64,000 bases of DNA, taken from assembly GCF_964204645.1 (NCBI RefSeq), contig NC_134027.1, forward strand, positions 16,152,485-16,216,484, given 5' to 3'. The notes under the pieces are model-generated. The model saw nothing but the letters and a program-made list of their open reading frames with translations. It did no database searches and was not told the DNA's origin. The stretch comes from Tubulanus polymorphus (Eukaryota; Animalia; Nemertea). Position numbers and translations under genes: made by a program. Numbering within the stretch: the first letter of the stretch is position 1; every line of letters begins with the position of its first letter. Below, in pieces: positions 1 through 52,559 of this stretch.

Positions 1-1524
1 TCGGTCGATGATAAAGCACCAAAGACACCTGAAACTGTAAATATTCGCCGTAGCGAACTTGAAGGAATGGAGCGAATTTGGTGTTCGTACCCAGGACTAA
101 ATGTGGTATCCAGAGTCGTACAAGCTAAAGTCATGGACACACATTTGCGACGTATATGTCATGTTAACGATTATTACTCCACTTTGAAAAAAGGAGAAGG
201 TAGACGTGATATCCTGTGTACAGTCAATTACAGAAAAGGCTGCCCATCACCGGTCGTTCAATTTTCAGTCACACGCGCAGTCGATCTCGGAACTTTGACT
301 GTCAACTGTAAACATCGGGAAGCGATACATAATTACGACACTTATTTAAAGCTAAAGGCCAAAACTCCCTATAATGTGGACAATTACTTTTGCTATAGAT
401 CAGACGACGACAATGGTATTAGTATAAGTCGAATAATGACAAATTATGAAATAACGAGCGGTGAAGCTAAATGTACGTACCATTTACCCAACGAACCGAG
501 ATTAGATCCAGGTAGTGGATTTTCATCAGCAGATCTACCCGGAGTCAACAGGTACGATAAAGTCAACAATCTACCAAGAGATTCTTGTATCGTATGGAAT
601 CCCCGAACAAATCACCCAATTATGTCAAGTAACCAATTCATAAACATGTATGCTGTAAATAAAAACTTACCCATCAACAAACAGGTGCACTCGCACACGG
701 AATCTACCAAGTCTGAAACGTTCGGAAAATTGATCACATCACCAAACGCTGGCATGCAAGTCGATTGTCTACTACCCGAAAAATTTAACAAAGACGGCTC
801 TGTTCCATGTACAGGAGATAATGTACCAAACGAACAAACACGAACATTGGTTGACGGAACAGCGATAAGTCTATACGCGGTCCTTCGAGTTGGTTCAAAC
901 GATGCCATACCCCCTATGGAACTCAAAATAGCCAGCATAGATCACTATGGCACAGATCAAAAATGCCAAGTCAATAAAGACCTACTAGAAGGTTACAACA
1001 TGACCGAAGTTGGCGATGTGGGATTATATTGTAGCAACGTACCCATGAAACACGACAACATCAACGTGATACTAAGTGTGCAAATTAGCGACAGACTCAG
1101 TAAGACTAAAATTTTCATGAACAATAAACGATATACGATTGGATATCAATGTATGATGGGTGAAGGAGCTAACAAAGTCGAGAGTAAAGAATTGACTTAT
1201 ACCACACTTTCGGTATACAACTCTAGAATTGAAAATTTGATCACGAAACATGAAATGAAACCAAACCCAGATTCTAAACTACCCCAGCCACATGGTAAAA
1301 CGACAGTTCCAAGATATGAACCCGCCAAACACAAACATGCCGGCATACATCATGGTGAGATTCCAGATTCGTCCAGCCGTGTTCATGCAAAAGATCATTC
1401 CGGACGCACAAGGAACATTATTATTATCGGTTCTTGCTTAGGCGGAGTTTTGTTGATTGCAACTGGTGGATTTGTGTTTTATATTGCGAGAAGAAATCGT
1501 AGAATGTCAAAATTGAACAAATAA
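1..1524 (+). CDS. Type I membrane glycoprotein, Cys-rich beta-rich (possibly Ig-like) ectodomain; 5'-partial
   Basis: Frame is open from base 1 through the 67..1524 ORF; C-terminal TM helix IIIIGSCLGGVLLIATGGFVFYI followed by basic stop-transfer RRNRR; NxT sequon (NMT); AATAAA overlaps the stop; no introns. Confidence 0.75.
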   Translation, partial: SVDDKAPKTPETVNIRRSELEGMERIWCSYPGLNVVSRVVQAKVMDTHLRRICHVNDYYSTLKKGEGRRDILCTVNYRKGCPSPVVQFSVTRAVDLGTLTVNCKHREAIHNYDTYLKLKAKTPYNVDNYFCYRSDDDNGISISRIMTNYEITSGEAKCTYHLPNEPRLDPGSGFSSADLPGVNRYDKVNNLPRDSCIVWNPRTNHPIMSSNQFINMYAVNKNLPINKQVHSHTESTKSETFGKLITSPNAGMQVDCLLPEKFNKDGSVPCTGDNVPNEQTRTLVDGTAISLYAVLRVGSNDAIPPMELKIASIDHYGTDQKCQVNKDLLEGYNMTEVGDVGLYCSNVPMKHDNINVILSVQISDRLSKTKIFMNNKRYTIGYQCMMGEGANKVESKELTYTTLSVYNSRIENLITKHEMKPNPDSKLPQPHGKTTVPRYEPAKHKHAGIHHGEIPDSSSRVHAKDHSGRTRNIIIIGSCLGGVLLIATGGFVFYIARRNRRMSKLNK

Positions 1525-1717
1525 ATAAATGAAATAATTGTATTTATAAATATGTTGTTATGGTTACTTTGTTATTGCACAAATTTACAAGTCCAGAACT
1601 GAAAATGTTACAAGTCCGAAAATAATTTCGTAACCCCAGCACAACTGTCCGCTTATTTCTCCTCTCGTATCCGTAACCTTAGTTCTCCTCTTGTAACCCG
1701 GTGAGAAATTAAGATGA

Positions 1718-2624
1718 ACGGGTGTGGACATTTCTCATAGTTAACTAAAAAGTCAAAGTAACCTCAAGGTTACCATGTAAAATTAACTTAACTTGAACTC
1801 TAAAACTGGGGTTGGAATTAACTTTTTGTTAACCGGAGGTTAACTTTTTTGTTAACTTCTGGTTAAGTGACTGAATGCAGATTCAGTGAATCATGTTGAG
1901 AACAAATTCCAGGAATCAGTTCTGAGATTTCCCCTGTACAAATTCATGCGGTTGTGGGAAAGCAATATGCTGTGCAGCAATATCCATAAAAAAGTTTGCC
2001 ACCTCCCTAGCATGGCCGATCACTGTTGGTTTAGCGTAGCCAACAGCATATCCCACTTGTCTATGGATTCCCCCAGATGCCAAATAATGCAAGAATGTTT
2101 TCACCATTTTGTTTGAAGCTACAACACTAGGCTCACCATTTCCTATATGGTTCTCAACTCTCCAGCGATGGAAGACATCCACAAGGTGGTCAAATTGTTC
2201 TCCATCCAAGCGCAAATGTCTTTCAATGGGTTCATCAGTATTAAGCTGCAGTCCTAATGTAGTTTTCTCTCCTTCTAAGAGCAAAAATCTGGACCATTGC
2301 CACATCAAACATGGCTAAAATCTCAACCTTCAGATTTGACCTCCCTCCTAGTTAACCAAAAGTTAACGACCAGGTCGTTAACAGATTATGTACATGGCTT
2401 GCAATGTATTTTTCATAACTTTGACAGATTTCCTGGATTTAACTTGACCAAAAGTTAACTTTCTGTCAGATAGACTAAACTATCAGTCAAATTAACCAAA
2501 CTGTGGAAGTTAACTTTTAGTTAACTGGCTGTTATGTCAAGAGGTCATTTCTGGGTGTTAAGTTAACTTTCTGTTAACTGCCATGGTTTACTTTTAGTTA
2601 ACTATGAGAAATGACCTCACCCGT
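1718..2624 (-). mobile_element. Internally deleted PIF/Harbinger DNA transposon
   Basis: 33-bp TIR ACGGGTG(T/A)GG(A/T)CATTTCTCATAGTTAACTAAAA at 1718-1750 and 2592-2624; many internal GTTAAC sites; encloses a transposase fragment. No clean TSD seen. Confidence 0.8.
1916..2308 (-). pseudogene. Harbinger (HARBI1-like) transposase N-terminal HTH fragment, DDE domain absent
   Basis: LRLDGEQFDHLV...TFLHYLASGGIHRQVGYAVGYAKPTVIGHAREVANFF...IAFP follows the Harbinger N-terminal pattern and ends where the catalytic domain would begin. Confidence 0.75.
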
Positions 2625-3374
2625 CTATTCCTGTTCTTTATTGACTTTACAATTTGGCATATGAGCCGCATACAAAAATTTCAAATGTTCTAGTTGTCCA
2701 TGAAGTGTTTCTACTTCATTTTTCAGATTTTCGTTTTCGGTAGTAAGTTTATCGCTCTTATCTTGTAGTTCATTCAATTTATCCACTTTTCGCTGTCGAC
2801 ATTTAGCCGCAGCTGCACGATTTCGTTCACGTCGATCAATATCCTTCTCCGTGTAAGTTTTTATCTTTCCGACAATGCGACGTTTAGCAGTTGGCAAATA
2901 GCCTGGATTATAGATTTCCTCTTCGGTTAAGGTCTTTTCTTTTTTAATACTAACGTCTACCACCGGCGATAGACTTGGCGGCTCCAATTCTGCTCGCGAA
3001 ACAGAACCACAAATTTTAACTTCCACCGGTTTATGTTGGTCAAGTGGTTGGCTCACATTATGTATATGTTTGTTCATGAAATCCGAGTAGGTTGGTGGTA
3101 ACCTTTCAAAATGTATTGGTGTGGGAATCGAACACGACTGACTTGGCTGTGGCTCTGTTGACATGGGTATTGTCGTTGGCACTGGAATTGGAAAATCGGT
3201 AGGCGGCGATTTTAACGTTTCCATTACTATGGGTGAATCCTCACGCTTTGGTGGTGTTTCCACACTTTGTTCTTTTGGTATTGTGTTCATTAAGACAGAG
3301 TCAACGTATTTGACCCACCTGTTTACGTCCATCTTTAACATAGAATGAAGGAAGGAGGAAGTAATCACATGCAC
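2625..3374 (-). CDS. Intronless AP-1 family (Fos/ATF-like) bZIP transcription factor with Pro-rich N-terminus
   Basis: Basic region RRERNRAAAAKCRQRK, leucine heptads, Fos-like tail LKFLYAAHMPNCKV. The true start may be a downstream Met. Confidence 0.88.
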   Translation of the reverse strand: MHVITSSFLHSMLKMDVNRWVKYVDSVLMNTIPKEQSVETPPKREDSPIVMETLKSPPTDFPIPVPTTIPMSTEPQPSQSCSIPTPIHFERLPPTYSDFMNKHIHNVSQPLDQHKPVEVKICGSVSRAELEPPSLSPVVDVSIKKEKTLTEEEIYNPGYLPTAKRRIVGKIKTYTEKDIDRRERNRAAAAKCRQRKVDKLNELQDKSDKLTTENENLKNEVETLHGQLEHLKFLYAAHMPNCKVNKEQE

Positions 3375-3506
3375 AAATACAAATAGTGTCCGAAAAAAAT
3401 TCTCCCCAACAGAAAAATCTCACCCGGAATTTTTCTAACATGTAACAAAAAATATATTATACAAGCCGGACTATTTGGACACAACATTTCAATTCTAACC
3501 ATCAAA

Positions 3507-6500
3507 ATGGATAGACTGCTCAAAGATGGTTTTTGCAATTGGATCAATAGTCAATGGTTATTTGACTTGAAAAGATCAGAAAGTCAATTTTGTATCGCTC
3601 AGAGAGATGTAGAGGAGGAAAAGTTTGAAAATGTCGTGAAAAGGTCTTTGGTGAAATTTCAACGAGACTTGGATATGCTTCTAGCATTCATCCACTTGGA
3701 TAAAATAGCCAATGCCAACCAATGGATGGTAGACTGTGTTGTAAAGGAGATCTTGGTATTGGAAGAAAATATCCAAGAGTTAATGGAAAAACGACAAAGT
3801 TTCAAAGTCTCCGATAAATTACCCTTGATGAGCCATTTCGAAAAATATCATTTTACAGACGATGGTGATAAACATCAATTGTTCGGTAGAATCGACAACC
3901 TGGACATTGAAAAACATCTGATTGCGCATTTGAGAAATCTGGCCATTTATATCATGAACTCTACCCAAAGTTTAATTTTACATTGCTACAAGAAAATATG
4001 GGTCGATGACATGCAACAAGATAGCGGGAAAATGAATGAGGACTACTATTGGGATGAAGACGAGTCTAACGAATTGTTTATTACCCCGCTGTCAAACAAC
4101 AACAAGGGAAGGTACTACGTGGTGTCTATAGCTCACATGCTGAGATGTTATATGGATACGTCGCCATCTGTCCAAGATTTAGGGAGTTATCTTCAAGTAG
4201 CAATGACTCCTAAATGGACTAACTTGTGCGATAATTTGTTGATAGACCGACTCTCATCTGTACCCTTCTCGATGTTGGATCAAAATGCGATCGATGTCAC
4301 AGACGGTGAAATAAAAAAGACCGATTTTATACCAGCAGTCCTTCTTTGGTTTAAAGACAAGTATGAAAATGACGATAGTACCCCAGCAAACGCGTTTAAT
4401 GAATTATCGAGAGAATTTGCCGACTTTAAAAAAAACAACCAAGCCCAATCGGTGTTGAACAACATAAGTCCGGGAGCGTTTGCCTACATGTACATGTCTG
4501 GCTTTATGCTACAGCGATTGGACGAATATGGGTGGATCAACATATTGAACGCAGATTACACCGAGTTACTCAGAGCTCTACGATCTGTTGAATTTACAGC
4601 CAAGTTTTGTGCCGAGTACAAGCACGGAGTTAGTTTTATCGACACAGGTAATCTGACTCTGCTCGGTGAACATCCTTCACTCGTTCAATCAATGATACCC
4701 CAACAGCAATATTTGCTCATGTGTGAAACAGTGAAAAATTTAGCAAATCGAAAAGCCAAACACGATCTGAAATGTCTACGGACTAGATGGATACCATCTT
4801 GGTGTGATGCGATGAAATCGTTGCACAACAAGGAACAAAATACCCCGGTCACCTGCATTTGTGACAACCAACCGTCTGAACCATCAGCGACACGCGAAAA
4901 AGAAATGCACAGCGATAACAGTGGATCGGTGTTATGTGGCTACATTAAAGATACAACAAGTCACATTCCGTACAATCAAAGAGTTAAAATGTTTCACAAA
5001 GACTCTACTTTGGCAAAATTTGCCAAGTGCCTTATGGGTACAATTGATGACACACGAAGTATCGACACATCTAATTTGACAGTAGGTGCCCTTTTGGACT
5101 TGTTGCATTTCTTTGGCTTGTGCAATTTTTGGAAGCGTAATTTTCTATGGTATCATGCATCGATATCTTTGCTGCAGATACTCGAAGGTCGAAACTTGGA
5201 CGGGGTCGATAGAATTGTGTTGACTCAGAATACAAGACAGAATGGTTGCGGTTCAAATGAAATCATTTTACCCTGGAATGTTTTTGTGGGTTGTCAACAC
5301 CCCAAAGACTCAATTACTAGATGCATACCCCCCGCGACAAAAACACAAAGTCCCATCGCCATCGACTTTCTCTATATTCCTTTGAACATATCCGATCTAC
5401 GCGCTCTATACGATTACGATAGCAGAGAGACTGGTGGGGAATATTTGAAAAAAATGACTGGTGTGGCCATGGACGGCGATCAACAAGGGCAGGTGAATGA
5501 AAAAGAATGTGCGATGGTAGAGTTTCTATCTAGAACCATAGAATATTGCATTCTATATGATAAGGAACTTGTCAGATCACCTATGGATGCGATAGAAAAT
5601 TTACTTTATCGTCTACACCCATTGGCTGATGATCACGAGACCAAGTCCAAATATACCACTCTTCAAACAGTAAGAACAGTGGGAAGACAAGATGTAACTT
5701 ATACCGATGACAGCGATGTGTCAGAAGGTGATGATAATAGAATAAACTTGTACTACAATTCCTACCCAAAATCACAAATTCAAATTCAACAGGACAATGA
5801 GGAAACTGTAGAAGGCGGTGGTGGTTACTTTTTCCACACGCTAGCTAGACCTGTATTAATTCTGTTGATGCAAGAAATACCCGATTCAAGATTTGTTGCA
5901 AGTTTGGTAAAAAAACTGACCCCGTATGTAGCAGGTATACAATCGACAAACACACACATGACAGAACAATTGAAAATTAACAACAGCGAAAATTTCCTAC
6001 AAATGATGCTGGACTTTGTCCACGGTACGAAAAAAGATGAACATTTATTCACCAACCCTAACTCACCAAGCGCTACTCTTACCCAATCAGGTCGTGTGTA
6101 CGAAAATGTAGTTGCAAACACAGTTGCGCACCATTTGGCTCCGATCATGGCTACTTGGACATATTACTTTTTACACGGACTTGGTAAAAAGTTCTGGTCC
6201 GCGGTGAGAACATGTGTAGAAAAATCTAGCGGCAACGCGGGATTAGGCGCGATTAACGACGTCAGTGTCCAAGAAAGTTATAACCTTGGCACGAAAGAAA
6301 AATGTACCCTAGATAAGTGTACGAATAAAAATGTTCTGTACTCTCGTGGAATAGGCATGGTGACAAATTTTCAATCTACACCGATCGAGACTTGTCCGTT
6401 TCATGATAGAGACAGTGGCATAATTCAATGTGGATTGCACAAGAAAATCGACCACTCTTACATGTTAAAAGGTAGGCTAATAGACGAAATGAAATTTGCA

Positions 6501-6596
6501 ACAAATGTCTGCACAAGAAACTTGGTCAAGGTTTACACAAAAATTTCTACATTAGAAATGATAGCCAGTACACAAGTGATTCTATGCGACTCCTAA
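3507..6596 (+). CDS. Large intronless hypothetical protein (1029 aa) with C-terminal Cys/His cluster
   Basis: Uninterrupted 3.1-kb ORF, divergent from the bZIP gene; CTLDKC...CPFH...CGLH near the C-terminus; family not recognised. Confidence 0.8.
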   Translation: MDRLLKDGFCNWINSQWLFDLKRSESQFCIAQRDVEEEKFENVVKRSLVKFQRDLDMLLAFIHLDKIANANQWMVDCVVKEILVLEENIQELMEKRQSFKVSDKLPLMSHFEKYHFTDDGDKHQLFGRIDNLDIEKHLIAHLRNLAIYIMNSTQSLILHCYKKIWVDDMQQDSGKMNEDYYWDEDESNELFITPLSNNNKGRYYVVSIAHMLRCYMDTSPSVQDLGSYLQVAMTPKWTNLCDNLLIDRLSSVPFSMLDQNAIDVTDGEIKKTDFIPAVLLWFKDKYENDDSTPANAFNELSREFADFKKNNQAQSVLNNISPGAFAYMYMSGFMLQRLDEYGWINILNADYTELLRALRSVEFTAKFCAEYKHGVSFIDTGNLTLLGEHPSLVQSMIPQQQYLLMCETVKNLANRKAKHDLKCLRTRWIPSWCDAMKSLHNKEQNTPVTCICDNQPSEPSATREKEMHSDNSGSVLCGYIKDTTSHIPYNQRVKMFHKDSTLAKFAKCLMGTIDDTRSIDTSNLTVGALLDLLHFFGLCNFWKRNFLWYHASISLLQILEGRNLDGVDRIVLTQNTRQNGCGSNEIILPWNVFVGCQHPKDSITRCIPPATKTQSPIAIDFLYIPLNISDLRALYDYDSRETGGEYLKKMTGVAMDGDQQGQVNEKECAMVEFLSRTIEYCILYDKELVRSPMDAIENLLYRLHPLADDHETKSKYTTLQTVRTVGRQDVTYTDDSDVSEGDDNRINLYYNSYPKSQIQIQQDNEETVEGGGGYFFHTLARPVLILLMQEIPDSRFVASLVKKLTPYVAGIQSTNTHMTEQLKINNSENFLQMMLDFVHGTKKDEHLFTNPNSPSATLTQSGRVYENVVANTVAHHLAPIMATWTYYFLHGLGKKFWSAVRTCVEKSSGNAGLGAINDVSVQESYNLGTKEKCTLDKCTNKNVLYSRGIGMVTNFQSTPIETCPFHDRDSGIIQCGLHKKIDHSYMLKGRLIDEMKFATNVCTRNLVKVYTKISTLEMIASTQVILCDS

Positions 6597-8585
6597 CTTC
6601 TTGCCATGGCAATCTAACCCAGCAAGCCGTTCTTAAATGGCTTACTCGTGAAAAGAAAACGAAGCAGCCGACTACAATTAAAGCATACATCTTCACCATC
6701 AAAAACCGGTTGATAAAGTTCATACGTTATGTGAGTATAAATTCGATTAACAATGCTTGTTACTGACCCGAAAGTGTATACTGATACTTCCTATTAACAG
6801 CACGGCGTGGAGAAATGTCGAATGACGGAGGTCGGGTTAAATCAAGTAATTGCGGAGTTAGATCGCATGTGTAAGTCCATGGGAAAAGAATATAAGAGGC
6901 GGCTCTATGAGGTTCATGATGCGCAGCGAGGTGAGTTTTCATGCTAGATATATAGTGCTTTCGAACGAATATAAATCTTTCATACAAATAACCTTTTTCT
7001 ATACCCATGAAGGCCACCTTCTTGACGCCGCTGATATTAAAAAGATTTTGCAATGCGAAATTTCGGACACTGCTGTCAAACTCTTAACCGCCGAGAATTA
7101 TGGAGTAACTCCAGAAGAGTACCGTCTCGTGAGGAACTTTCTATTGTTCGCCGTAACAATGTTGGGGGCTAGCCGACCCTCGCTTACAGTCGGTATTACA
7201 TACAACAGGATTAAACGCGCGAAATTCGAAGAATCAACAGGGCTGCATACCATCAAGGTTGTTATGCATAAAACTACGTCAACACATGGTGCTGGATATA
7301 TCCACTTAGAGCGAGTCCCGTTTACCTATCTTGAGACATTTGCGAGGAGATTTTGCAGGGATAAACCCGATGCTACTATATGGCGCATGACGGTACTCTC
7401 CTTCCACCGAATTATCTGAACAAGTATGTACATGAATTATCGTTAAACTTTGTATCAACACATTATAGTTGCACATGAATTATCGTTAAACTTTGTATCG
7501 ACACATTATAGTTGCACATAAATTATCGTTAAACGTTGTATCAACACATTATAGTTGCACATGAATTATCGTTAAACTTTGTATCGACACATTATAGTTG
7601 CGCATGAAGTATCGTTAAACTTTGTACTCCGTCACTACCCCAACAAGTATGGACCCATTTAAATCATTGTAGAGCATGAACTAAAATATTGTTTTTCAGA
7701 CCATTACGAGCGTTTGTTCAGCTTACAATACCGGACAAGCACGTGACACCAACGCTTCTTCGAAAATCGATAATGACTGCTATGAGTGATAGCGACGACA
7801 AAAGCCTAAAACATTTGGCCCGGTACATGCTTCACAATCCAACCACAGCCCAGCGCTACTACGACCTGGACAAAGGACCTCAAAAAACGATGGACGTCAG
7901 AAAAACCTTCCACAAATCCCTAGCGGTATGTACAAGTATAGAGACTTTGTGTAATTCAGTTGGTTCACCCATCTATACCATGTTTTTCTTGTAGATGGGC
8001 TCCGGCGTTTTTACAGCAGGACCGTCGTGTTCGCAGCCAGCTCCATTGGCAGAGCCAGCTCCATTGGCAGAGCCTCAGGCGAGTTCGCAGCCGGCTCCAT
8101 TGGCAGAGCCTCAGCCAACAACGAATAATTCTGACTCAGCACCTGAACCAATGGAGGCAGAGACTTCACCTCCACAAGATGTAAGAACGTTAACATTTCT
8201 ATTCCACATGATTCACAGTTCACAATAATCATTCATGTTACTGTCCTTTTCAGCATAATTCAAGTGATGATGAGCGTGGAGAAAGGCCGGTAGATATTCC
8301 TGTAAGTTCATCCACATAGGTTTCACTGAGTTCACTGTTTCCAACTAGTTTCTACATCATGATTCATCCGTATTTGTTCTTCTCTTATAGTCCATGCCCT
8401 GTCGAAAAAGAAAAAGATACAGCGACGAGGAAAAGAATCAAATCGCGAGTGCCTTCCGCTACTATGTACCAGCAGAAAAAATTCGAAAAATTGCCCGTAA
8501 GAACGAAGACATAAAGAAAATCATCAAGGCTTACCCAAACGGCGTCGAAAAGCTCAGACAATATTTGAGAAATTTCGATAAATAG
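6584..8585 (+). CDS. Seven-exon tyrosine recombinase/integrase with one apparent frameshift near 7365-7380
   Basis: Exons 6584-6730, 6801-6930, 7013-7423, 7700-7925, 7995-8180, 8254-8301, 8391-8585 have GT-AG ends and matching phases once one frameshift in exon 3 is allowed. Catalytic pattern GASRPS (R), HKT (K), TLLRK (R), MLH (H), TAQRYY (Y); C-terminal basic helical domain RKRKRYSDEEK. Confidence 0.82.
7431..7625 (+). repeat. 43-bp tandem repeat, about 4.5 copies, in recombinase intron 3
   Basis: Unit CATGAATTATCGTTAAACTTTGTATC(A/G)ACACATTATAGTTGCA at 7431, 7474, 7517, 7560 and 7603 (partial). Confidence 0.95.
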
Positions 8586-8798
8586 ATTTTCAATTCTGTG
8601 GAATTTCGTTTCGTTAAATATACCTTCGATTAGAATAGAATTTAATTCTTACCATATTTATTCTTGTGGTTGACGAGGAGTATAATTCATGCGAGGAAGG
8701 ACGAGGATGCATCAGGAGACTTAGTATTTATTAAGGATGACTTGGTGAAGAGGATCGCATGCGAAAACAAGATCCACTACAAAGAGAAGAAAGCTTGT

Positions 8799-8871
8799 AA
8801 AAAAAGTATTATTTTGGGATTCGAACCTGATTGCCTTAAGCATGACCCTATCACTTTGGCTTATGGGCACG
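8799..8871 (-). ncRNA. Putative tRNA-like Pol III small RNA, copy 1
   Basis: Minus strand: A-box-like TAAGCCAAAGTG, B-box GGTTCGAATCC, then a T7 terminator. Confidence 0.45.
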
Positions 8872-11396
8872 TATCTCTTGTCTCAAATCTAACATATTTA
8901 CCCCTACCCTATCACTTTGGCTTATGGGCACGTGTATCCCAAGTAATATGTAATATTCTTGGGCTTGGCGAAGAGGGTGACAAGCTAAAAACGAGGAGAC
9001 CATCACTAAAACACGATACATCATCAAAATGAAGGTTTGTAAGCATGTTAGGTTTGAAAAAAAAATTGAATAATTTCGGGACTCGAACCTGACTAGCGTA
9101 ACCCTGACCCTATCGCTTTGGCTTATGGGCACGTATCTCTTGTCTCATATCTAACAATATTTACCCGTACCCTATCACTTTGGCTTATGGGCACGTATCT
9201 CTTATCTCTAGCTAACAACGTGTTTTAAGAAAATTTGCTCAAATTCAAACGTCCGAGGCTAAGCTTCAGGAGGTCGTACAGACTATTCGTCTCCGGCCCT
9301 TTGTTGGCCATCTTTGGGTGCCCAATGCTAAAATGTTGAGCAGTTTAACTGAACCCTTATAGAATACGCTACAAGGGCCTAAAAGTGGCCTTCGGGCGCT
9401 AGGGTTAAGCTTCCGAGTCTCTTTGGCTTATGCGCACGCGTAACTTTGACATTTTTTTGAACGAAATTTTAATGCCTTGGGCCCGTGTCCAGAGCGCTCA
9501 ACATCGGTGCGATCGAACCCCTGGCCAAAATCGATATTATAGAACCCTGGTCCATAGCCCTGTGTACCGGCCTATAGAATCCTGTCGTTGTCTCCCTGCT
9601 TTTAAGGGGATTTCTAGACCCCTAAACATGCATCATTGCGTTCGGTCATATAAGGCACTTTTTTTTTCAAGCGTCCACGGCGCCCAAGCCCTGGGGTCTA
9701 CCCCCTCGTGCCGCATATCCACGGATTCAGAATGACCCCCTCTATCTTCTAATATCTCTTTTTAACCGTTACGAGGTCGTTGATTTAAACGTGGTCGCGA
9801 AATATCGCTTTTTCGGGCCAAACTATTTATCGACCCCTTAACGCCCTACCCATATCTAAAACCGACCTTTTTCTCGTTCAGGGCGTTAATAGCTACCCGC
9901 TCCCGAAATTTCGAGTCGATTGGAGCAATTCTAAATTTTGAAAATTTTAGGGCTATTTTTTCGAAATTTCCATCGCTCATATCTCCGGAAGTATTTGAGC
10001 CAGGGGGCCAAATCTTTCAGAGGACATACCCTTAGGGCCCTTAAGTACGGGCACCGAGTTTCAAGTCTCTAAGTCCAGTACTTACGGACTTAGAGAAATT
10101 TAAAAAAATCGCTCGGCTTATGCGCACGTCCGACCTTTTTTTTTTGGGGGGTCATAACTCCGGAACCGCTTGACCGATTTTCGAATTTCCGGTCTCAAAA
10201 TGAAGAAAAAGACTTGCTCTTTCAGATTCAATATTCAAATCAATCCCCTAATTAGCCCTAAAGAATTACCCCTACCCCTAAAGTTCGTAGCAAGTCGGTG
10301 AGATGGTGGTAGGGAACAACTAGCCCATAATTTTCGAAATAATATACAACAAATTTTTTTTTTCTAAAATGACTCTGGAGTCTTTATTTCTGGTCGTAGA
10401 GCCTTATTACCGGTTGGGTCGGATGAGGGACTCAAAACTCTAACTGCTCACGTTTACAGACCTAAATTCGGTGCAGGGAGTCCAAAAATATAGGACTTCC
10501 AAGATTTTGACAGATTTTGACATGGCTTATGTGCACGCGAAAAAAGGAATCCAAAAAGGAATCGCCATATATCTCAAAAACTATAAGTCGGATCGTAAAA
10601 ATTCTTGCACCACGCGATTCTACATGCTCGAAATAACGGTACTAGGATGTTTTTTTGAGAAAATAACGACTGATAACAGCGTGCTCATAGGCCAAATTAG
10701 GGATATCATTAACGATAACCCTGAGCTGGGGGTTTCCTTACTTCCGGAGACGTTAGAGGAGATCCGAAGCCTGGAAAACTATCTTTGGGGTCCCATCAAG
10801 GTCCTGGCAGTGCTCGAATTTCGATAATAGGTGGCGTTAAGGACGTTCCCAAAAGCCAAATCATGGATATGAGACTTCACGAAAAATGATATAACTTTTT
10901 TTTGGCTAATAATATTTACACGAATTTATGTTTCCCGTATTCTAAGGAAAATTTTCTACGTCCCTGATACCATTAACATCACTTTCGAGCAAAAAAAAAA
11001 ATTCAGAATTTGACTTTGTCATTTTTTGGACGAAATTTGGTTTTGAGCTAAGGGGTATCCCATTGGGATCCCCTTACTTGCGGTTGGTCTAGACCCTCAA
11101 AAACACCCCCTATCCAATGATAGGAACGACTTCTATCGACCCTATGAGTTGTATGCCGATCTGGGTCCCCTAAGTGCCCGAGGCCCATGGGCCAATCCGG
11201 GCCTCTATTTTAAAGCTTTTAAAGTCTAACGTTCACATAAGCCACTTCGGAAATTTATCAAACATATACGTTCTCATAAGCCATGCACGCGTGCTCATAA
11301 GCCTATGCACGCGTACGCATAAGCCACTTGGCTTATTTGCACGCGTGGTCTCAGGGTTGTTCGGCTTATATGCACGCGTGTTGGTATATGTGCACG
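8846..11396. repeat. Dispersed subterminal motif GGCTTATGNGCACG
   Basis: Forward copies near 8858, 8919, 9120, 9182, 9425, 10115, 10524, 11330, 11363; inverted CATAAGCC copies near 11236, 11275, 11296, 11318. Confidence 0.8.
9057..9133 (-). ncRNA. Putative tRNA-like Pol III small RNA, copy 2
   Basis: Minus strand: TAAGCCAAAGCG, B-box GGTTCGAGTCC, T9 terminator; same ends as copy 1 with a different middle segment. Confidence 0.45.
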
Positions 11397-11427
11397 TAAA
11401 ACTCGGAAAAAAACACGATGACTTTGG

Positions 11428-11439
11428 CCCTAACCCTAA
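11428..11439 (+). repeat. (CCCTAA)2 telomeric repeat at the junction between the virus-like element and the retroelement
   Basis: CCCTAACCCTAA directly precedes the 5'-truncation point of the Penelope copy. Confidence 0.9.
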
Positions 11440-13149
11440 CCGAAACAGAGGCAGTTCTATCTGCTTCCCAAAATCCATAAAGAACGCGAGAAGTGGACGG
11501 TACCCGATCGCGTACCGCCGGGGAGACCGATCGTCTCCGACTGCGGCTCCGAAACCTACGAAATTTCGGAATGGATCGACTACTATTTGCAGCCGATCGC
11601 CCGCGGTCACCCGTCGTACGTCAAAGATACCAACCACTTTCTAGATATTTTGGCCGGTAAACAATTTAGCGCCGATGCGTTACTCGTCACCATGGACATC
11701 GATTCGCTCTACACCAACATCCCCCACGAAGAGGGTATCGCCAGCATCCGACAAGCTCTCCGAGATAACCCGAACCCGGGACGCCCGGATGCCGAGCTGC
11801 TGAAACTACTCGAAATCAGCCTGAAGAAAAATGACTTTAACTTTAACGAAAACACATATTTACAGGTAAAAGGTACCGCAATGGGTAAGCGTTTTGCTCC
11901 TTCTTATGCCAATATCTTTGTAGCCGAATGGGAAAAAGAAGGTCTGTCCAGAAGCGAACTCCAACCATCGCTATACGCTCGGTTCATCGACGACATCTAC
12001 ATAGTTTGGGAACACGGCCGCGAAACGTTGATGCAATTCATCGACGTCCTACAAACAGTGAGCCGATCCATCAAACTCAAGTTCGAAATCAGCGACACCA
12101 GCGTCAACTTCCTGGACGTAACCACTTTCAAAGGCCCGCGATTCGAGACAAGTGGCACAGTAGACACCAAAGTCTACTTCAAACCAACCGATTCGCATCA
12201 ATTACTACATCGATCCTCGTTTCACCCTAAACACACATTTTCCGGTATAGTTAAAAGTCAAATTCTCCGGTTCCGGCGCATCTGCAATAACGATTCGGAC
12301 TTACACGCAGCGTCCGGAACCGTCCTTAAAGTACTCAGAGGTCGTGGCTACAAAGACCGCGAACTGCGACACATCAAAAGCCAAGCTCTACGGCACCACG
12401 CCGAACGAGATCTACGAGAACAACAACGGGCCGACGAACCGCCGAAAAAGCGTTTACCGCTTATCTTACCTCACTCCGAAGCCAACCGAACCCTAGCCCG
12501 TAACATCCGAACCAGATTTACGGAACTGGCTACGGCCACCGGCCGGTCTGACGAGGTAACCACGGTCACCGCCTACACCAAGCACAAGAGTCTCAAAGAT
12601 CTCCTAACTTCGTCGCAGCTCAAACCCACGGAGCCACCCCCTCCCCGAGTCCCCTCTTCACCGCATCGTAACAGAAATACTTCCGTTGTTTCCAATTCTT
12701 CTATTTCCAGGTCTACTCAAAGAACTCCGTCAACCCGACGTCGAGGCACCGAGAAATGCAGAACACCGAGATGTCGTACGTGTCCACTCGTCCGAGAAAC
12801 AACCGTTTGCCGCAGCCACAACAAAATGCACGCGATCCGCAGCACAATTAATTGCGCGACCCGTGAAATTGTATACTGCATCGAATGCACCAAGTGCAAC
12901 ATGCTGTACGTCGGCCAAACCGGAATGTCTCTACGAGAACGCGTCACTCATCACGTCTCACGCATCAGAACGAAGAATTCGACTCCAGTCTCGGACCACT
13001 TCAACCAAGTCGACCACACCCGCGAACACTTTCGGGTGTACGGTCTCCAACACCTACCAGGCTCCACGAGACCGATCCGCGAAGCAGCCGAACAAGACTG
13101 GATACGACGACTCGACACGAACACGCCCCGAGGCATGAACGTCCCGTAG
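11440..13149 (+). pseudogene. 5'-truncated copy of the Penelope RT-GIY-YIG ORF (pseudo-LTR)
   Basis: Begins mid-RT at PKQRQFYLLPKIHK; same protein sequence as the downstream copy. Confidence 0.92.
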
Positions 13150-13561
13150 ACCGCCTCACTACAACAATTAACTCTCACTACTTTTTTACAGGGATAACCC
13201 GCTGCCCGTGCACTAGTGGGGTCTCCAAACCTTCGGTTTGGTCCCCTAACCTCTATCTCTAAACCTAACCTTAGCCCGTGCCAGGTTTCCCTCGTAAATT
13301 ATCTTAACTGATTAATTATTAATCATCAATCTATTTGCAGAATCATCCTCCGTCGCCTGAAGCAGAAACCCGCTCAGAGACAGAGTACAAAACAAACTCC
13401 AAGATCACAAGCTCCACAGGAATCATCAACCTTTTATCTTTTAATTAGTTCTCTCTGCTTTACTTTGAAAACTCAATCGAAATTCAGTAAGTAAGAAGAC
13501 AGACCAAATATCAGAAACAGTTAGAAAAATAAACAAAAGCGCGATATCGGGAACCGAACCC

Positions 13562-14086
13562 TAACCGCTAGTACAGACTGGTTGCCTGTCCCAGGACGAT
13601 AGAAACCGGTAACCAGTCCACCGCTATTATCTATTTCGAAAATATGCGTCAGCACTGAGATTATATCATAGAAACACCCGAAAAGTATTAATTAATCTAT
13701 TATAAATTTAGAAAGAAAGGGAATCTAGAATAGGTAAGAATATACTCAATTACTAAAACGGCGCGCCTGATCGGGACTCGAACCCGCGGCACCCGAATTA
13801 AGCTCCGGAGAATACTCGGGAACCGTACCCGCCGCTCCGAAATTAACCGCTAGTACTGACGGGTTGCCGGTGCCCCGCGTTAGATACCGGTAACCAGTCC
13901 ACCGCTCTTATTTATTTTGAAAATATGCGTCGGCACTAAGATTATATCGTAGAAACATCTGAAAAGTACTATTGTATCCGTCAAAGATTCAGAATTAAAA
14001 GGAATCCAGAATAGGTAAAAAACATTTAGAATAGAACTATTCAATTACTAAACGGCGCCTGGTCGGGACTCGAACCCGCGGCACCC
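13562..14086. repeat. Diverged ~285-bp direct duplication in the Penelope non-coding region, each copy with an antisense B-box
   Basis: TAACCGCTAGTAC...CCGGTAACCAGTCCACCGCT...GAAAATATGCGTC occurs twice; TCGGGACTCGAACCCGCGGCACC near 13770 and 14062. Confidence 0.8.
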
Positions 14087-15444
14087 TAATTAACCTCCGT
14101 TTAATCTATAACGTTCGGTCGGGGACCTAACCCGCTACGTCCTAATTAACTATTATCGTATCTACGCGCCAACTCTTGGAACATACTCTATATAGATCCG
14201 GGTGTCAAGTTTCAAATTTCTCTAAAACAGACAGTTTATTTTCGGATAACAATTCTAATGAGATCGCTCAAAAGTATTAGTAGCTATATTCAAAAACCGC
14301 ACTATAGGTTGTAGAAGTATAAGAAGTTTATAGGATAAATAATAGTCCACGGACATCAATCACTGTTTACAAGTCACTCATAATTAGTGACCGATCGGCC
14401 ACCTGCGCCTCTTGACTAATTATCCGACTCAATTCTATACAAAATCGCAGTTACGACGCCTTCAAACTCATCAGTTTTTCTCAAAGAACACAGCCCAATA
14501 TTCCCGATTCAAAAAGAGTTTTATATCACGTATATATTTCAACCTTCGGATTAAAGAAGAGATCATAGTGTTTTTGAACCACTCAAACTACGCAAGCTTA
14601 AACCGATTTACTGAATACCCGCGCTCCGGTCTGAATATATTTGTCACATGTTCAAGTTCACATAGCTTTACTCGATCCTAATAACTCTAAATAAGCGTAG
14701 TTTATCTAATAGAATTATATTTAAGAACTTAGAATTAAAACAGACGTATTAGTAAGACATTTCTATCAAAACTCGTCACCAATAATTAGGGCTAATTAAC
14801 CACCCGCGCTCACTCAGTAATTTAGATCTTACGGGTTATAACTTCCTACTAAATCGCCGACGCCGCGCTGTCTAATTCATCCAATTTTCGGTAGAATACC
14901 GCGTAGATATTTCAAAATCCGCTCTTAAAAGCTTTAGAATACGGAGAAAACTTGATTAACTAAGAACCGGATTTCACCATTTACGACTATTTAGTATACA
15001 CGCGTATATCGGAATACGCCTCGGCCGCGCACCGCTAATTAACGCATCTAAACTAATTAGGAATTAAGCAATTTTGAAACTGAACTCGGACATATTTCGA
15101 ATATTCCGGTTCACGTATATTAATAATACATATTCTAGATTTCTCTTTATAGAAAACACCTTGAGTATTTATTAGGTTATATCGAAATAAACTTTTCAAT
15201 TCTATATTAGACACGCCGTTCTTTAGATCTTTAGAACTATACATCAAAGCAAACTATTCAACAGCTAGATCAAGGGCCATAATTAGTGCTGTTTTCTAGT
15301 CACTCTGGATCAAAGGCATAATTAGTCAGACCCCTAGTTTGTCTATTAGCTTGATCACAGAAGTACAATTAGTCTAGATCACAAGGTCTCATATGGTCAC
15401 TTAACTTCTAACTCAAATACTGTTCACTTGTTGCGCGCTGCGTG

Positions 15445-15452
15445 TATAAAAA
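15445..15452 (+). promoter_or_regulatory. TATA box of the Penelope internal promoter
   Basis: TATAAAAA about 26 nt before an Inr-like TCAGC and just upstream of the hammerhead and ORF1. Confidence 0.55.
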
Positions 15453-15488
15453 CCCGTGTCTAATCCTAGTTCAGCATGATTCCTGCAC

Positions 15489-15526
15489 TGACACTGACGA
15501 AGGCAACCTCGCCGAAATATCTGTCA
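15489..15526 (+). ncRNA. Minimal type I hammerhead ribozyme
   Basis: Stem I TGACA/TGTCA, core CTGACGA (15494-15500), stem II GGC/GCC, GAAA (15514-15517), palindromic ATAT stem III, cleavage triplet ATC (cut after 15521). Confidence 0.85.
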
Positions 15527-17041
15527 ATGGAGCGATCTACTCGAAAGAAGAAACGACCACCAGCTGAGAAGACCAGCGAGGGCGGAGGACGCCCTGAGCG
15601 ACACCAGCAACCCGGGATGTCGCCGAAAAATTACTATAGAGCTCTTCAAGTGGCGCACCACCTTGCCCAGTTGAGCTCTGGTCCGAAAGCGATTCGGAGG
15701 AAGAAGGACCATCTGAAGATGTTCCTGCGGCCGGCGGCTTGCACCGAAGCAGTAACGGTGCAGCTGCACGCTGCCGCGGACGTCTGGATGGAGACAGTTT
15801 CGAAAGAGCTGACCATCCATTACGCTGCCACATTTGTTCAGCTAATGGGTGATCCTCTGCCGGACTGTCTATCAGCACAGGATGTCGCCCTGACATGGGC
15901 CCGGAGGAATTTCGGCTCCCGTCTGAGCCCCGGAACGATCCGGCTTTTCAACATCGCGCTGGATTTGCGGTCGAAATTCCGCGGTCAGGCTCTGTCTGAC
16001 AAACTCAGAAATGTCCTATCTAACCCACCTTCTTCCCCTTCTCATTTCAGGTCACACCACCAGGAGGCACCACCGGAGCCGAAGATTCGTCCGCCGCCGA
16101 GACCGAGCCGGAAGATTCGAAAGCCCGCGACGCCGAGGACGCCTGCACCAACCGCAGCCGCGCCCACCGCGCCCACCGCGCCCACAGCGCCTCCTTCTTT
16201 TTCTGATTCCAGGTCACCGAGAAGCTACGCGGATGTCACCAGGACGCCACCAACCAGAATGGCGCCACCACCGAGAAGTCCGATGCCGACGCCGCCGCCG
16301 CCACCAAGAAGTCCGACGCCACCGAGAAGTCCGACGCCGCCGCCTCGAAACCCGACGCCGCCGCCGCAGAGAACGCCGACCGCACCAACCAGCAGTCCGA
16401 CGCCGTCTCTCTCTTCTTCTCTTTCCAGCTCTCCGTCTCATTACAGGTCACCAGGGCGCCTACTGCCAGCGCGAAGTCCGACGCCAGCACCGAGACCGAT
16501 GGCGCCCCAGGAAGTTCGCCGTCATCCGAATACGGGTCGGAAGAAACAGGATTGGAGTCTGCCACCAACCCGGCGACCCATTCTGGTGATTGGTGACTCA
16601 AATCTGAGTAACATCACATCAAGCCGCCGTCCGGATGACGTCCAGATCGAGAGCTTCCCCGGCTGCAAGATAGCTCATCTCGCCGACCTGATCGATGCTG
16701 TACCGGAGCGCCGAGATCGCCCGGATACGGTGATCATCAGCGTCGGAATCAACAACCGCGACAACAACTTCGAAGCGACCGCCAAGAAGACCACACAGCG
16801 CCTGATCAACGCCGCAGTCAAGAAGTATCAGCACTCGTTCGTCCACTTCGTTCAACTTAACACGACCCGCGAACACCAGCAGTTCGCCCGGAAGTTCAAC
16901 GAATTCCTCGAGATTCACGACGACGTCACCGCGATACCACCCATCGATGATCGACGCTTCAGAGTTGTTGGAGACGGGATCCACTGGAACCGTGGTACAG
17001 CTAACACCCTGCTGGACCACTGGCTCAGTGGTTTAAACTAA
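15527..17041 (+). CDS. Penelope ORF1: helical N-terminal domain, Pro-rich linker, SGNH/GDSL esterase
   Basis: SGNH blocks LVIGDSNL, FPG, SVGINN, DGIHW with intact Ser-Asp-His. ATG 15527 lies just after the ribozyme cut; ATG 15476 lies before it. Confidence 0.88.
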   Translation: MERSTRKKKRPPAEKTSEGGGRPERHQQPGMSPKNYYRALQVAHHLAQLSSGPKAIRRKKDHLKMFLRPAACTEAVTVQLHAAADVWMETVSKELTIHYAATFVQLMGDPLPDCLSAQDVALTWARRNFGSRLSPGTIRLFNIALDLRSKFRGQALSDKLRNVLSNPPSSPSHFRSHHQEAPPEPKIRPPPRPSRKIRKPATPRTPAPTAAAPTAPTAPTAPPSFSDSRSPRSYADVTRTPPTRMAPPPRSPMPTPPPPPRSPTPPRSPTPPPRNPTPPPQRTPTAPTSSPTPSLSSSLSSSPSHYRSPGRLLPARSPTPAPRPMAPQEVRRHPNTGRKKQDWSLPPTRRPILVIGDSNLSNITSSRRPDDVQIESFPGCKIAHLADLIDAVPERRDRPDTVIISVGINNRDNNFEATAKKTTQRLINAAVKKYQHSFVHFVQLNTTREHQQFARKFNEFLEIHDDVTAIPPIDDRRFRVVGDGIHWNRGTANTLLDHWLSGLN

Positions 17042-17073
17042 GTATTAGTGAGACCAACGGGTCCACTATTGGT
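17032..17073 (+). promoter_or_regulatory. -1 programmed ribosomal frameshift signal
   Basis: T_TTA_AAC is in the ORF1 frame immediately before TAA; 7-nt spacer; stem TAGTG/CACTA (17046-50/17064-68) with inner GACC/GGTC, or a pseudoknot ACCAA/TTGGT; the -1 frame is open into RT. Confidence 0.78.
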
Positions 17074-19497
17074 GAGTTAAATCAACCGGAATTAACCAAT
17101 GCTTCTCTGATTTCTTCCATTTCCAGGTCCGACGAACACGAAGAACCGGCACCAAACCAAGCGCGACGCGATCCGGTCACCGCTCTCGGGAGCCCGGTGG
17201 TCAACCTCACACGTTCACTCCGCCTAAGTCCGGCGCAACATCAGCTACTCCGAAAGGGCCTCACTTATTGCCCGACTCCAAAAATCGGTTCTGATGCCGC
17301 CGCGACCGAGCGCACCAAGGGAGTGTGCCGATTCAACCGGCTAGTGAAACTCGACCATCACTTCCGAGACAAACCGGACCGCGAGGCTCCGCGTTTCCGT
17401 CTGCCCAGCAGTTGGGCTCCGGATGAAATAGAACCAGTAATCGCCGGGTTCTGCAACGACGCGCACGAATTGGCTCAACAAACCAGGGATACGCGTCGCG
17501 TAAATGATAACCTCACTAAACAGGAACGCGAAGCCCTCCAGCAGCTGCGTGACAACACTAATATTGTCATCAAAGCCGCCGATAAGGGTTCCGCTACGGT
17601 TATCATGGACCGCGACGACTACGTCCACGAAGCCATGCGCCAACTAGCCGATCTCGAGTATTATCAGCCGCTGCAGCAACCGATCTTCGAACAGACCGGG
17701 GAAGAAATTCGCGAAATCATCGAAAATATGGCTCGACGAAAAATCATCCCGCTAAAAACCGCCGAATATCTATTACCGCCCGATAATCCGAAACAGAGGC
17801 AGTTCTATCTGCTTCCCAAAATCCATAAAGAACGCGAGAAGTGGACGGTACCCGATCGCGTACCGCCGGGGAGACCGATCGTCTCCGACTGCGGCTCCGA
17901 AACCTACGAAATTTCGGAATGGATCGACTACTATTTGCAGCCGATCGCCCGCGGTCACCCGTCGTACGTCAAAGATACCAACCACTTTCTAGATATTTTG
18001 GCCGGTAAACAATTTAGCGCCGATGCGTTACTCGTCACCATGGACATCGATTCGCTCTACACCAACATCCCCCACGAAGAGGGTATCGCCAGCATCCGAC
18101 AAGCTCTCCGAGATAACCCGAACCCGGGACGCCCGGATGCCGAGCTGCTGAAACTACTCGAAATCAGCCTGAAGAAAAATGACTTTAACTTTAACGAAAA
18201 CACATATTTACAGGTAAAAGGTACCGCAATGGGTAAGCGTTTTGCTCCTTCTTATGCCAATATCTTTGTAGCCGAATGGGAAAAAGAAGGTCTGTCCAGA
18301 AGCGAACTCCAACCATCGCTATACGCTCGGTTCATCGACGACATCTACATAGTTTGGGAACACGGCCGCGAAACGTTGATGCAATTCATCGACGTCCTAC
18401 AAACAGTGAGCCGATCCATCAAACTCAAGTTCGAAATCAGCGACACCAGCGTCAACTTCCTGGACGTAACCACTTTCAAAGGCCCGCGATTCGAGACAAG
18501 TGGCACAGTAGACACCAAAGTCTACTTCAAACCAACCGATTCGCATCAATTACTACATCGATCCTCGTTTCACCCTAAACACACATTTTCCGGTATAGTT
18601 AAAAGTCAAATTCTCCGGTTCCGGCGCATCTGCAATAACGATTCGGACTTACACGCAGCGTCCGGAACCGTCCTTAAAGTACTCAGAGGTCGTGGCTACA
18701 AAGACCGCGAACTGCGACACATCAAAAGCCAAGCTCTACGGCACCACGCCGAACGAGATCTACGAGAACAACAACGGGCCGACGAACCGCCGAAAAAGCG
18801 TTTACCGCTTATCTTACCTCACTCCGAAGCCAACCGAACCCTAGCCCGTAACATCCGAACCAGATTTACGGAACTGGCTACGGCCACCGGCCGGTCTGAC
18901 GAGGTAACCACGGTCACCGCCTACACCAAGCACAAGAGTCTCAAAGATCTCCTAACTTCGTCGCAGCTCAAACCCACGGAGCCACCCCCTCCCCGAGTCC
19001 CCTCTTCACCGCATCGTAACAGAAATACTTCCGTTGTTTCCAATTCTTCTATTTCCAGGTCTACTCAAAGAACTCCGTCAACCCGACGTCGAGGCACCGA
19101 GAAATGCAGAACACCGAGATGTCGTACGTGTCCACTCGTCCGAGAAACAACCGTTTGCCGCAGCCACAACAAAATGCACGCGATCCGCAGCACAATTAAT
19201 TGCGCGACCCGTGAAATTGTATACTGCATCGAATGCACCAAGTGCAACATGCTGTACGTCGGCCAAACCGGAATGTCTCTACGAGAACGCGTCACTCATC
19301 ACGTCTCACGCATCAGAACGAAGAATTCGACTCCAGTCTCGGACCACTTCAACCAAGTCGACCACACCCGCGAACACTTTCGGGTGTACGGTCTCCAACA
19401 CCTACCAGGCTCCACGAGACCGATCCGCGAAGCAGCCGAACAAGACTGGATACGACGACTCGACACGAACACGCCCCGAGGCATGAACGTCCCGTAG
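17032..19497 (+). CDS. Penelope ORF2: reverse transcriptase, Zn knuckle, GIY-YIG endonuclease
   Basis: IKAADKG, YLLPKIHK, GRPIVS, DIDSLYTNIP, GTAMG, RFIDD, CRTPRCRTC, VYCIECTKCNMLYVGQT. No ATG before the RT N-terminal region; frame is open from the slip site. Confidence 0.95.
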   Translation, partial: FKLSISETNGSTIGELNQPELTNASLISSISRSDEHEEPAPNQARRDPVTALGSPVVNLTRSLRLSPAQHQLLRKGLTYCPTPKIGSDAAATERTKGVCRFNRLVKLDHHFRDKPDREAPRFRLPSSWAPDEIEPVIAGFCNDAHELAQQTRDTRRVNDNLTKQEREALQQLRDNTNIVIKAADKGSATVIMDRDDYVHEAMRQLADLEYYQPLQQPIFEQTGEEIREIIENMARRKIIPLKTAEYLLPPDNPKQRQFYLLPKIHKEREKWTVPDRVPPGRPIVSDCGSETYEISEWIDYYLQPIARGHPSYVKDTNHFLDILAGKQFSADALLVTMDIDSLYTNIPHEEGIASIRQALRDNPNPGRPDAELLKLLEISLKKNDFNFNENTYLQVKGTAMGKRFAPSYANIFVAEWEKEGLSRSELQPSLYARFIDDIYIVWEHGRETLMQFIDVLQTVSRSIKLKFEISDTSVNFLDVTTFKGPRFETSGTVDTKVYFKPTDSHQLLHRSSFHPKHTFSGIVKSQILRFRRICNNDSDLHAASGTVLKVLRGRGYKDRELRHIKSQALRHHAERDLREQQRADEPPKKRLPLILPHSEANRTLARNIRTRFTELATATGRSDEVTTVTAYTKHKSLKDLLTSSQLKPTEPPPPRVPSSPHRNRNTSVVSNSSISRSTQRTPSTRRRGTEKCRTPRCRTCPLVRETTVCRSHNKMHAIRSTINCATREIVYCIECTKCNMLYVGQTGMSLRERVTHHVSRIRTKNSTPVSDHFNQVDHTREHFRVYGLQHLPGSTRPIREAAEQDWIRRLDTNTPRGMNVP

Positions 19498-19590
19498 ACC
19501 GCCTCACTACAACAATTAACTCTCACTACTTTTTTACAGGGATAACCCGCTGCCCGTGCACTAGTGGGGTCTCCAAACCTTCGGTTTGGT

Positions 19591-21105: not shown

Positions 21106-21221
21106 ATAATGGGAAATAAATAGTTCGTTGCTTTGTTTATATAGAATCGCAGACAATAACGCGATTCTTTGCGATCTAATTTTAAAATAAGCTTAGCAGT
21201 CCGGTACTCGTTATATTAAAG

Positions 21222-48854: not shown

Positions 48855-49250
48855 GTGGGCGACAAAACCAAAAAAATTAATTGTCGCGGGCGATAAAACT
48901 AAAATAATCAATTGTTGCGGGCGATAAAACCAAAATAATCGATTGTCGCTGGCGATAAAACCAAAATATTGAATTGTCACGGGCGACAAAACCAAAAAAA
49001 TTAATTGTCGCGGGCGATAAAACCAAAATAATGAATTGTCGCGGGCGATAAAACCAAAATAATGAATTGTCGCGGGCGATAAAACCAAAATAATGAATTG
49101 TCGCAGGCGATAAAACCGCGACAAAAAAAAATTGTCGCGGGCGATAAAACCAAAATAATGAATTGTCACGGGCGATAAAACCAAAATAATGAATTGTCGC
49201 GGGCGATAAAACCAAAATAATGAATTGTCGCGGGCGACAAAACCAAAATT
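48855..49250 (+). repeat. 31-bp minisatellite, array 1
   Basis: Unit AAAACCAAAATAATGAATTGTCGCGGGCGAT. Confidence 0.95.
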
Positions 49251-50957: not shown

Positions 50958-51250
50958 GGGACAAAACCAAAATTATGAATTGTCGCGGGTGACAAAACCA
51001 AAATATTGAATTGTCACGGGCGACAAAACAAAAATAATGAATTGTCGAGGGCGATAAAACCAAAATAATGAATTGTCGCGGGCGATAAAACCACAATAAT
51101 GAATTGTTGTGGGCGTTAAAACCAAAATATTGAATTGTCGCGGCAATAAAACCAAAATAATGAATTGTCGCGGACGACAAAAACAAAATATTGAATTGTT
51201 GCGTGCGACAAAACCAGAATAGTGAATTGTCGCGGGCGACAAAACCAAAC
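50958..51250 (+). repeat. 31-bp minisatellite, array 2
   Basis: Same unit as array 1. Confidence 0.95.
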
Positions 51251-52500: not shown

Positions 52501-52559
52501 CTTCCCAAAATAACTGGACGGACGGACGGACGAAAAGTGAACACAATAGCCCGCTGAAA

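Follow-up and report, generated by a model that had tools for sequence, protein, structure and literature searches.

The telomere-inserting nimaviruses (majaniviruses, pemoniviruses and clopoviruses) combine the genes of a large DNA virus with a tyrosine recombinase and a fixed end beside a telomere motif, which in them forms long (TAACC)n tracts (PMC10871703, PMC7016691; here and below, the account follows the accessible parts of the papers cited). Nimaviral integrases have been acquired several times (PMC10871703, PMC7016691), and reads of clopovirus and others that cross the motif end to end are taken as episomes or concatemers (PMC10871703). Marks of the group are nimaviral/naldaviral core genes (PIFs, DNA polymerase) and, in recombinases of its telomere clade, a C2H2 finger and a SAM-like domain. 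A first-pass annotation of the locus described here had drawn on nimaviruses as carriers of multi-exon tyrosine recombinases, some of which enter telomeric repeats. Telomere-inserting nimaviruses do exist, but in what is accessible of that work the multi-exon recombinases are reported for viruses that insert into 28S rDNA and not for the telomere-inserting ones (PMC10871703). In Teratorn, a fusion of piggyBac with an alloherpesvirus, one locus combines viral DNA with a mobilising module of different history, the module being a DDE transposase (PMC10175614). Cryptons encode a eukaryotic tyrosine recombinase, are free of long terminal repeats, have a 4–6-bp terminal segment and are proposed to form a circular intermediate (PMC3212892). 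Phaeovirus insertions in the alga Ectocarpus have a recombinase near one end, direct repeats at the right end and an inverted repeat around a short CC core (PMC13236599). HHV-6, Marek's disease virus and acipenserid herpesvirus 3 (AciHV-3) adjoin telomere-like repeats and themselves carry terminal repeat arrays (PMC12031113, PMC7016691); in AciHV-3 a Penelope-like element lies between virus and repeats, and the accessible part of that paper contains no mention of a recombinase or integrase (PMC12031113). BelcheriHV-1, integrated in the lancelet, is far less polymorphic than its surroundings, and the accessible part of its description mentions neither an integrase nor a link to telomeres (PMC12373286).

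The locus considered here occupies the first 11,439 bases of a 64,000-nucleotide stretch of the Tubulanus polymorphus genome (NC_134027.1), which we call the window. With the telomere-inserting nimaviruses it shares large-DNA-virus-like genes, a tyrosine recombinase-like gene and a fixed end beside a telomere motif, but the motif is the hexamer CCCTAA and extends over only 10–14 bases, no nimaviral gene was detected and three genes of the window match no viral family. Like Teratorn, it brings together a virus-like block and a putative mobilising module with separate histories. Unlike Teratorn, the module is a tyrosine recombinase-like gene, any functional fusion is hypothetical, and 1–11439 contains neither an ORF nor a Pfam match for a piggyBac transposase. 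The likeness to Crypton lies in the class of enzyme, the lack of long terminal repeats, the short terminal segment and a proposed circular intermediate. It differs from Crypton in its 2.8-kb motif-rich end, in its apparent CCCTAA targeting and in that a Pfam search with five recombinase exons (E up to 5) listed neither DUF3504 nor GCR1_C, the window itself being without a left end. Recombinase and right-end direct repeats are placed as in the phaeovirus insertions, which differ in their algal host and CC core. As in HHV-6, Marek's disease virus and AciHV-3, virus-like DNA adjoins telomere-like repeats, and as in AciHV-3 a Penelope-like element intervenes, but the end described here is array-free and is accompanied by a recombinase-like gene. 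The low polymorphism of the virus-like part recalls BelcheriHV-1. The locus would work like the telomere-inserting nimaviruses and be built like Teratorn, as an analogue rather than an established member of any of these groups.

A composite locus

Compact genes, a recombinase-like gene and a motif-rich end are all present, as the first-pass annotation had reported in proposing the end of one virus-like element, but 1–11439 is a broken composite and not a single intact element end. The reading that we prefer, at a probability of about one half, is that a recently spread virus-like block was cut at 6576 and joined to an older, multi-copy family of recombinase elements that insert at CCCTAA (Table 1). 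Detailed comparison covered four of the 12 sequencing runs that share the stretch (X1, X5, X6 and X7, with X2–X4 and X8–X12 left out); X7 consists of raw reads from another individual of organism A, and X5 of contigs from organism B. Besides X7, the organism-A samples S1 and S2 share the stretch, with word shares of 0.43–0.88, and no RNA run with the stretch was listed. Rfam gave no match over 1–22000.

Table 1. Features of the composite locus and the repeats that adjoin it (window coordinates)
Feature	Position	Strand	Details
Virus-like gene block	1..6576		Continues leftward and, in other copies, rightward; 87% coding; X1 and X5 contigs
Predicted type I membrane protein	1..1524	+	507-aa frame, open at 5′, start outside window
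907-bp insert	1718..2624		~40-bp inverted ends (90% alike), 129-aa ORF
Fos/Jun-like bZIP gene	2625..3441	−	ORF 2625–3341, PF00170 E 1.3e-13
Large protein, unnamed family	3507..6576	+	C-terminus cut here; relatives 999–1162 aa
Block/cassette junction	6576..6577		X7 reads, X5 contig, X1 contig end
Spliced tyrosine-recombinase-like gene	6577..8585	+	Six GT..AG introns of 69–276 nt; likely 5′-cut
Recombinase-like gene exons	6577–6730, 6801–6930, 7013–7423, 7700–7925, 7995–8180, 8254–8301, 8391–8585	+	Splice joints predicted
Non-coding right end	8586..11422		~13 GGCTTATGNNCACG-type motifs, both orientations, densest in final 200 bases
Five-base spacer	11423..11427		4/5 positions differ in X7
Two perfect CCCTAA repeats	11428..11439	+	First ten bases common to X7 junction
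Partial-tandem Penelope-like retroelement	11440..19617	+	5′-cut copy and full copy, 99.8% alike; RVT_1, GIY-YIG
Degenerate CCCTAA-like array	19615..21085	+	55 of 245 possible hexamers perfect; longest perfect run 2

The virus-like block and its cut edge

Over 1–6576 the X1 contig differs from the window by two letters and the X5 contig by 31, so that the organism-B sequence is 99.5% identical, and in X5 a single contig carries the block to a length of at least 23.5 kb. Copies this alike occur in runs that give no trace of the commonest local repeat of organism A, which suggests horizontal movement and provides the strongest argument for a viral nature. The block likely moves between hosts as a virus does. 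The initial description of this left part as virus-like thus holds in that the block acts as mobile, virus-like DNA; no viral hallmark gene was seen within the window.

The same description had called the genes intronless. The frames exist (1–1524, 2625–3341 and 3507–6596), but the label is uncertain because the bZIP gene may carry a predicted 91-nt GT..AG intron, with a possible six-codon first exon at 3441–3424 (3333–3441, minus strand). The closest PDB entry to the bZIP protein is c-Fos (E 1.8e-7). In the membrane protein a single hydrophobic helix is located near residue 473, close to the end of the frame, and no match was found in Pfam, NCBIfam, PDB or viral contigs. The 907-bp insert, with its short transposase-like ORF, is fixed within the block of organisms A and B (X1 and X5 contigs); the ORF, tentatively Harbinger-like by its motif, has no match in Pfam or NCBIfam.

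The large protein had been regarded as an orphan of 1029 aa. Its frame is present as described (3507–6596), but the gene stops short at 6576, where other copies continue. A search of 1.84 billion proteins gave four clusters of homologues (best E 1.2e-85), all of them from JGI/IMG or Logan contigs and none with a name. P0001, P0003, P0004 and P0006 represent an unnamed family of ~1000–1160 aa, encoded on short metagenome and Logan contigs and 20–32% identical to the large protein, which may mark a group of large DNA viruses that is still undescribed. No match to the large protein was obtained in a word-indexed search, Atlas, Pfam, NCBIfam or PDB, or in viral, metagenome or genome contigs; its folds were of low confidence (pLDDT 33 and 35) and uninformative, and BFVD gave none at E 0.001.

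The cut is visible both in the protein and in the DNA. All four full-length homologues, from six fetched, have a C[VI]GD motif near the C-terminus that is absent from the large protein of the window. After 6576, 12 X7 reads and the 23.5-kb X5 contig depart from the window into the same letters, the contig running 13 kb further, and the X1 contig stops precisely at 6576 with no loose letters, in the manner of a branch, which implies two continuations in the X1 sample. Because the X7 reads and X5 contig continue otherwise and the motif is missing, the ORF is read as cut at this point, and the overlap between the supposed orphan and the recombinase gene is therefore the junction in this copy. Gene overlap through compact packing is accordingly rejected, the overlap having been created by the 6576/6577 join.

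Unequal divergence across the junction

Between 6300 and 11475, 98 places differ in X7, nearly all of the 40 listed being present in every read, and just two of the 40 best-supported run differences lie in 1–6576. The part 6577–11422 is ~2% variable between individuals and has diverged sister copies; X1 contains a sister stretch of the cassette part that is 92% identical. X5 covers the block at 35x but has no depth between 6699 and 11800, and in X6 the block is found in pieces at up to 5.5x and the cassette at no more than 2.2x, contigs demonstrating presence only and the absence of the cassette from X5 and X6 being suggestive. The X5 word share is 0.34, against 0.333 expected for the block alone. 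As the cassette tracks organism A and is the more diverged, it was likely resident first, and likely present in organism A before the block.

These observations bear on the view, closest to the original annotation, that block and recombinase form one element, namely that both are native parts of an endogenous large DNA virus that integrates at CCCTAA, the copy in the window having lost at least 13 kb from its interior. Block and cassette do occur together in each of the three organism-A samples with the stretch (S1, S2 and X7), block and end are of similar depth in X7 (11–24x and 19–26x), and an integrase near an end with direct repeats is also the arrangement of phaeovirus insertions (PMC13236599) and nimaviruses (PMC10871703). 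We nevertheless consider a single virus somewhat unlikely, since X5 (35x) and X6 (pieces) carry the block without the cassette, the cassette varies far more than the block, and in no listed read or contig is an uncut block linked to the cassette. A single intact element is unsupported, the two parts being joined by a break at 6576/6577.

The recombinase-like gene

The spliced gene at 6577–8585 is likely, on the basis of sequence, to be a tyrosine recombinase-like gene. Residues of the superfamily occur in order (R 7174, K 7270, R 7761, H 7833, Y 7860) and at fitting spacings (R to H 24, H to Y 9), with T in place of H in the HxxR motif (T-x-x-R) and with the first R and the K placed by eye. 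A profile was built from 13 E. coli recombinases, with 1000 core shuffles and 240 stop-free window frames as controls. Exon 7701–7925 scored 7.9 bits against it (best shuffle 6.6, best other window frame 3.6), its R, H and Y sitting on the profile columns HxxR, H/W and Y, and the X-joined recombinase core scored 5.6 bits, a value exceeded by one of the 1000 shuffles; the R/K exon gave no alignment to this profile. Atlas recognition 2608 had a lead of 0.93, with PF00589 on 28% of its members (rank 7). Single exons yielded no integrase match in Pfam, PHROG or NCBIfam, and homologue searches with the exons were empty. A Med5 match to one exon was under its cut-off and was set aside.

The gene begins at the 6576/6577 junction and has a frame break near 7385 (the exon sum is indivisible by 3) that is lacking in X7 and X1, and the window copy cannot make recombinase. 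Of the multi-exon tyrosine recombinase first annotated here, the six introns and the catalytic-type residues survive, but the copy is frame-broken and likely 5′-cut, and its overlap with the preceding gene is the junction. The third intron contains a 43-bp tandem repeat of 4.6 copies (7430–7626).

The right end and its CCCTAA motif

The right end was correctly recognised as a genuine element end. It is motif-rich over 2.8 kb: GGCTTAT is found 13 times in 8586–11422, never in 1–8585 and three times in the 42.9 kb of right flank. The motif pattern is absent from viral contigs. X7 depth reaches 45–72x over 8275–9850, and X7 reads jump back by ~1 kb at 8641–9664 and 9904–10933, which reveals tandem ~1-kb units in other copies.

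Where ~16 X7 reads cover 11406, 14 reads depart after 11422. Beyond that point they have five bases, four of which differ from the window, then a stretch identical to 11428–11437 and then non-telomeric DNA, so that both junctions seen consist of end 11422, five variable bases and CCCTAACCCT. The ten-mer would be found at a fixed place by chance with a probability of 4e-7 by composition, or 2e-4 at the motif frequency of the window. The register of the end to the CCCTAA motif is thus fixed (n = 2/2 junctions), and it is a short motif, rather than an array, that serves as target. An X1 contig, 9844–11441 with two other letters, ends directly after the CCCTAA repeats, which implies another continuation there.

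Two earlier placements were rejected. An end at 11427 is contradicted by the copies, which share an end at 11422 and vary over 11423–11427. An end that abuts a telomere array, as the first-pass annotation had obtained by removing the Penelope-like element, does not accord with the two perfect repeats of the window, with the degenerate state of the array or with the ten motif bases, followed by non-telomeric DNA, in X7. That annotation had proposed asking whether all copies meet CCCTAA at the same base, non-telomeric sequence at variable positions being counter-evidence; the position is the same in 2/2, but the flank in X7 is non-telomeric. Compared by eye, the X7 letters past the motif agree with the reverse-complemented right end in 10 of 14 positions, and the X7 junction may for this reason be an end-to-end join, or equally a host site.

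It could be argued from the same junctions that the ten CCCTAA-type bases belong to the end of the element itself or to an end-to-end join, that the Penelope-like element brought or seeded the array, and that telomeres are not targeted. Consistent with this are the non-telomeric DNA after the ten bases in X7, the presence of just two perfect repeats in the window, the non-telomeric 7-mers common to the array and the Penelope 3′ end (for example CTCTAAA, 33 times) and the order virus end, Penelope, telomere-like repeat and host at several sturgeon herpesvirus junctions (PMC12031113). Such an origin is distinctly improbable, however, in that the five bases preceding the motif disagree at four places in copies that are otherwise ~98% alike, which a crossover spacer fits better than point change. 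It is more improbable by far that the 6576/6577 join is an assembly chimera, or the block non-viral cargo of the host or of a giant transposon, for although the tables give departures only, with no spanning read among those listed, and neither a hallmark gene nor a named large-protein homologue was seen, the X1 contig end at 6576 needs two continuations and the block hardly changes between organisms that bear different labels and lack the host repeat.

The Penelope-like element and the right flank

The Penelope-like element at 11440–19617 is a host repeat that lies outside the recombinase element. Its depth is ~40–47x that of the virus-like block in X7 and X1 (~790x and ~3000x in the Penelope bin) and 0 in X5 and X6. 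The family is recently active; its 3′ end is CCCTAA-like and has 7-mers in common with the array next to it, and it has a proline-rich upstream ORF of 521 aa with a weak GDSL/SGNH match (E 0.057). It is possible that 11440–21085 represents an endonuclease-bearing Penelope element that targets telomere motifs; endonuclease-bearing Penelope elements are described, with one exception, from animals only (PMC8557442), so that the element points to an animal host. The hexamer points to a non-arthropod. Perfect (CCCTAA)2 runs occur in the window at 11428 and 19617 alone, both outside the end at 11422. Two orders of events are conceivable: telomerase may have healed the Penelope 5′ end before the element inserted, or Penelope may have arrived after the element.

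Directly after the array is a Kyakuja-Dileera-Zisupton transposase fragment (21200–22823; PF18758, E 3.2e-11), followed by a split DUF3987 gene on the minus strand (24743–26865; PF13148, E 3.3e-11), interleaved satellite arrays of 31 bp and ~155 bp (48857–55233) and an AT-rich region (58225–60849; 22% GC at 59–61 kb) with two short ORFs that have no convincing Pfam match.

A proposed route of assembly

In the preferred reading, of a virus-like block joined to an older recombinase family, the recombinase would bind the right end and its subterminal motifs and excise a circle, which would then recombine with a short telomere-type motif across the five-base spacer, a match within the spacer not being required. 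The coupling sequences at the crossover of Tn916-type elements likewise need not match. Virus-like DNA would have come to lie beside or inside the recombinase element, either by a Teratorn-like capture or by stacking at a CCCTAA-rich site. A later deletion would have removed the intervening DNA, cutting both the large-protein gene and the recombinase gene, and the Penelope-like element would afterwards have used the same CCCTAA motif.

It is likely that an enzyme guides DNA into telomere-like repeats outside crustaceans as well, the enzyme not necessarily being the virus's own. The initial proposal, a virus-like element that integrates in TTAGGG repeats, survives in its core, the placing of a recombinase end beside a telomere motif. 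It does not survive as an intact virus end that meets a telomere array. A bolder and tentative version, which we think unlikely, is that a large DNA virus, as yet undescribed, infects non-arthropod animals, still passes from species to species and has captured a spliced tyrosine recombinase cassette that targets TTAGGG-type motifs, as a recombinase counterpart of Teratorn, in which case the X7 junction would be a circle or concatemer join made up of the right end, a 16-base core with the telomere motif, and a right-end-like stretch.

Significance

In the Creative Commons literature, searched by titles and the starts of abstracts, we found nothing on recombinase elements that target TTAGGG motifs in a non-arthropod animal, and recombinase-guided insertion into telomere repeats is in print there only for crustacean nimaviruses and their pentamer. 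TTAGGG is the telomere repeat of most other animals. If true, a TTAGGG-type version would extend recombinase-guided insertion to that repeat, and would offer for study a site-specific recombinase from nature whose spacer of five bases varies. The block marks a probably viral protein family that is known only from unnamed contigs, and the visible difference in age between virus and integrase makes the capture of an integrase testable.
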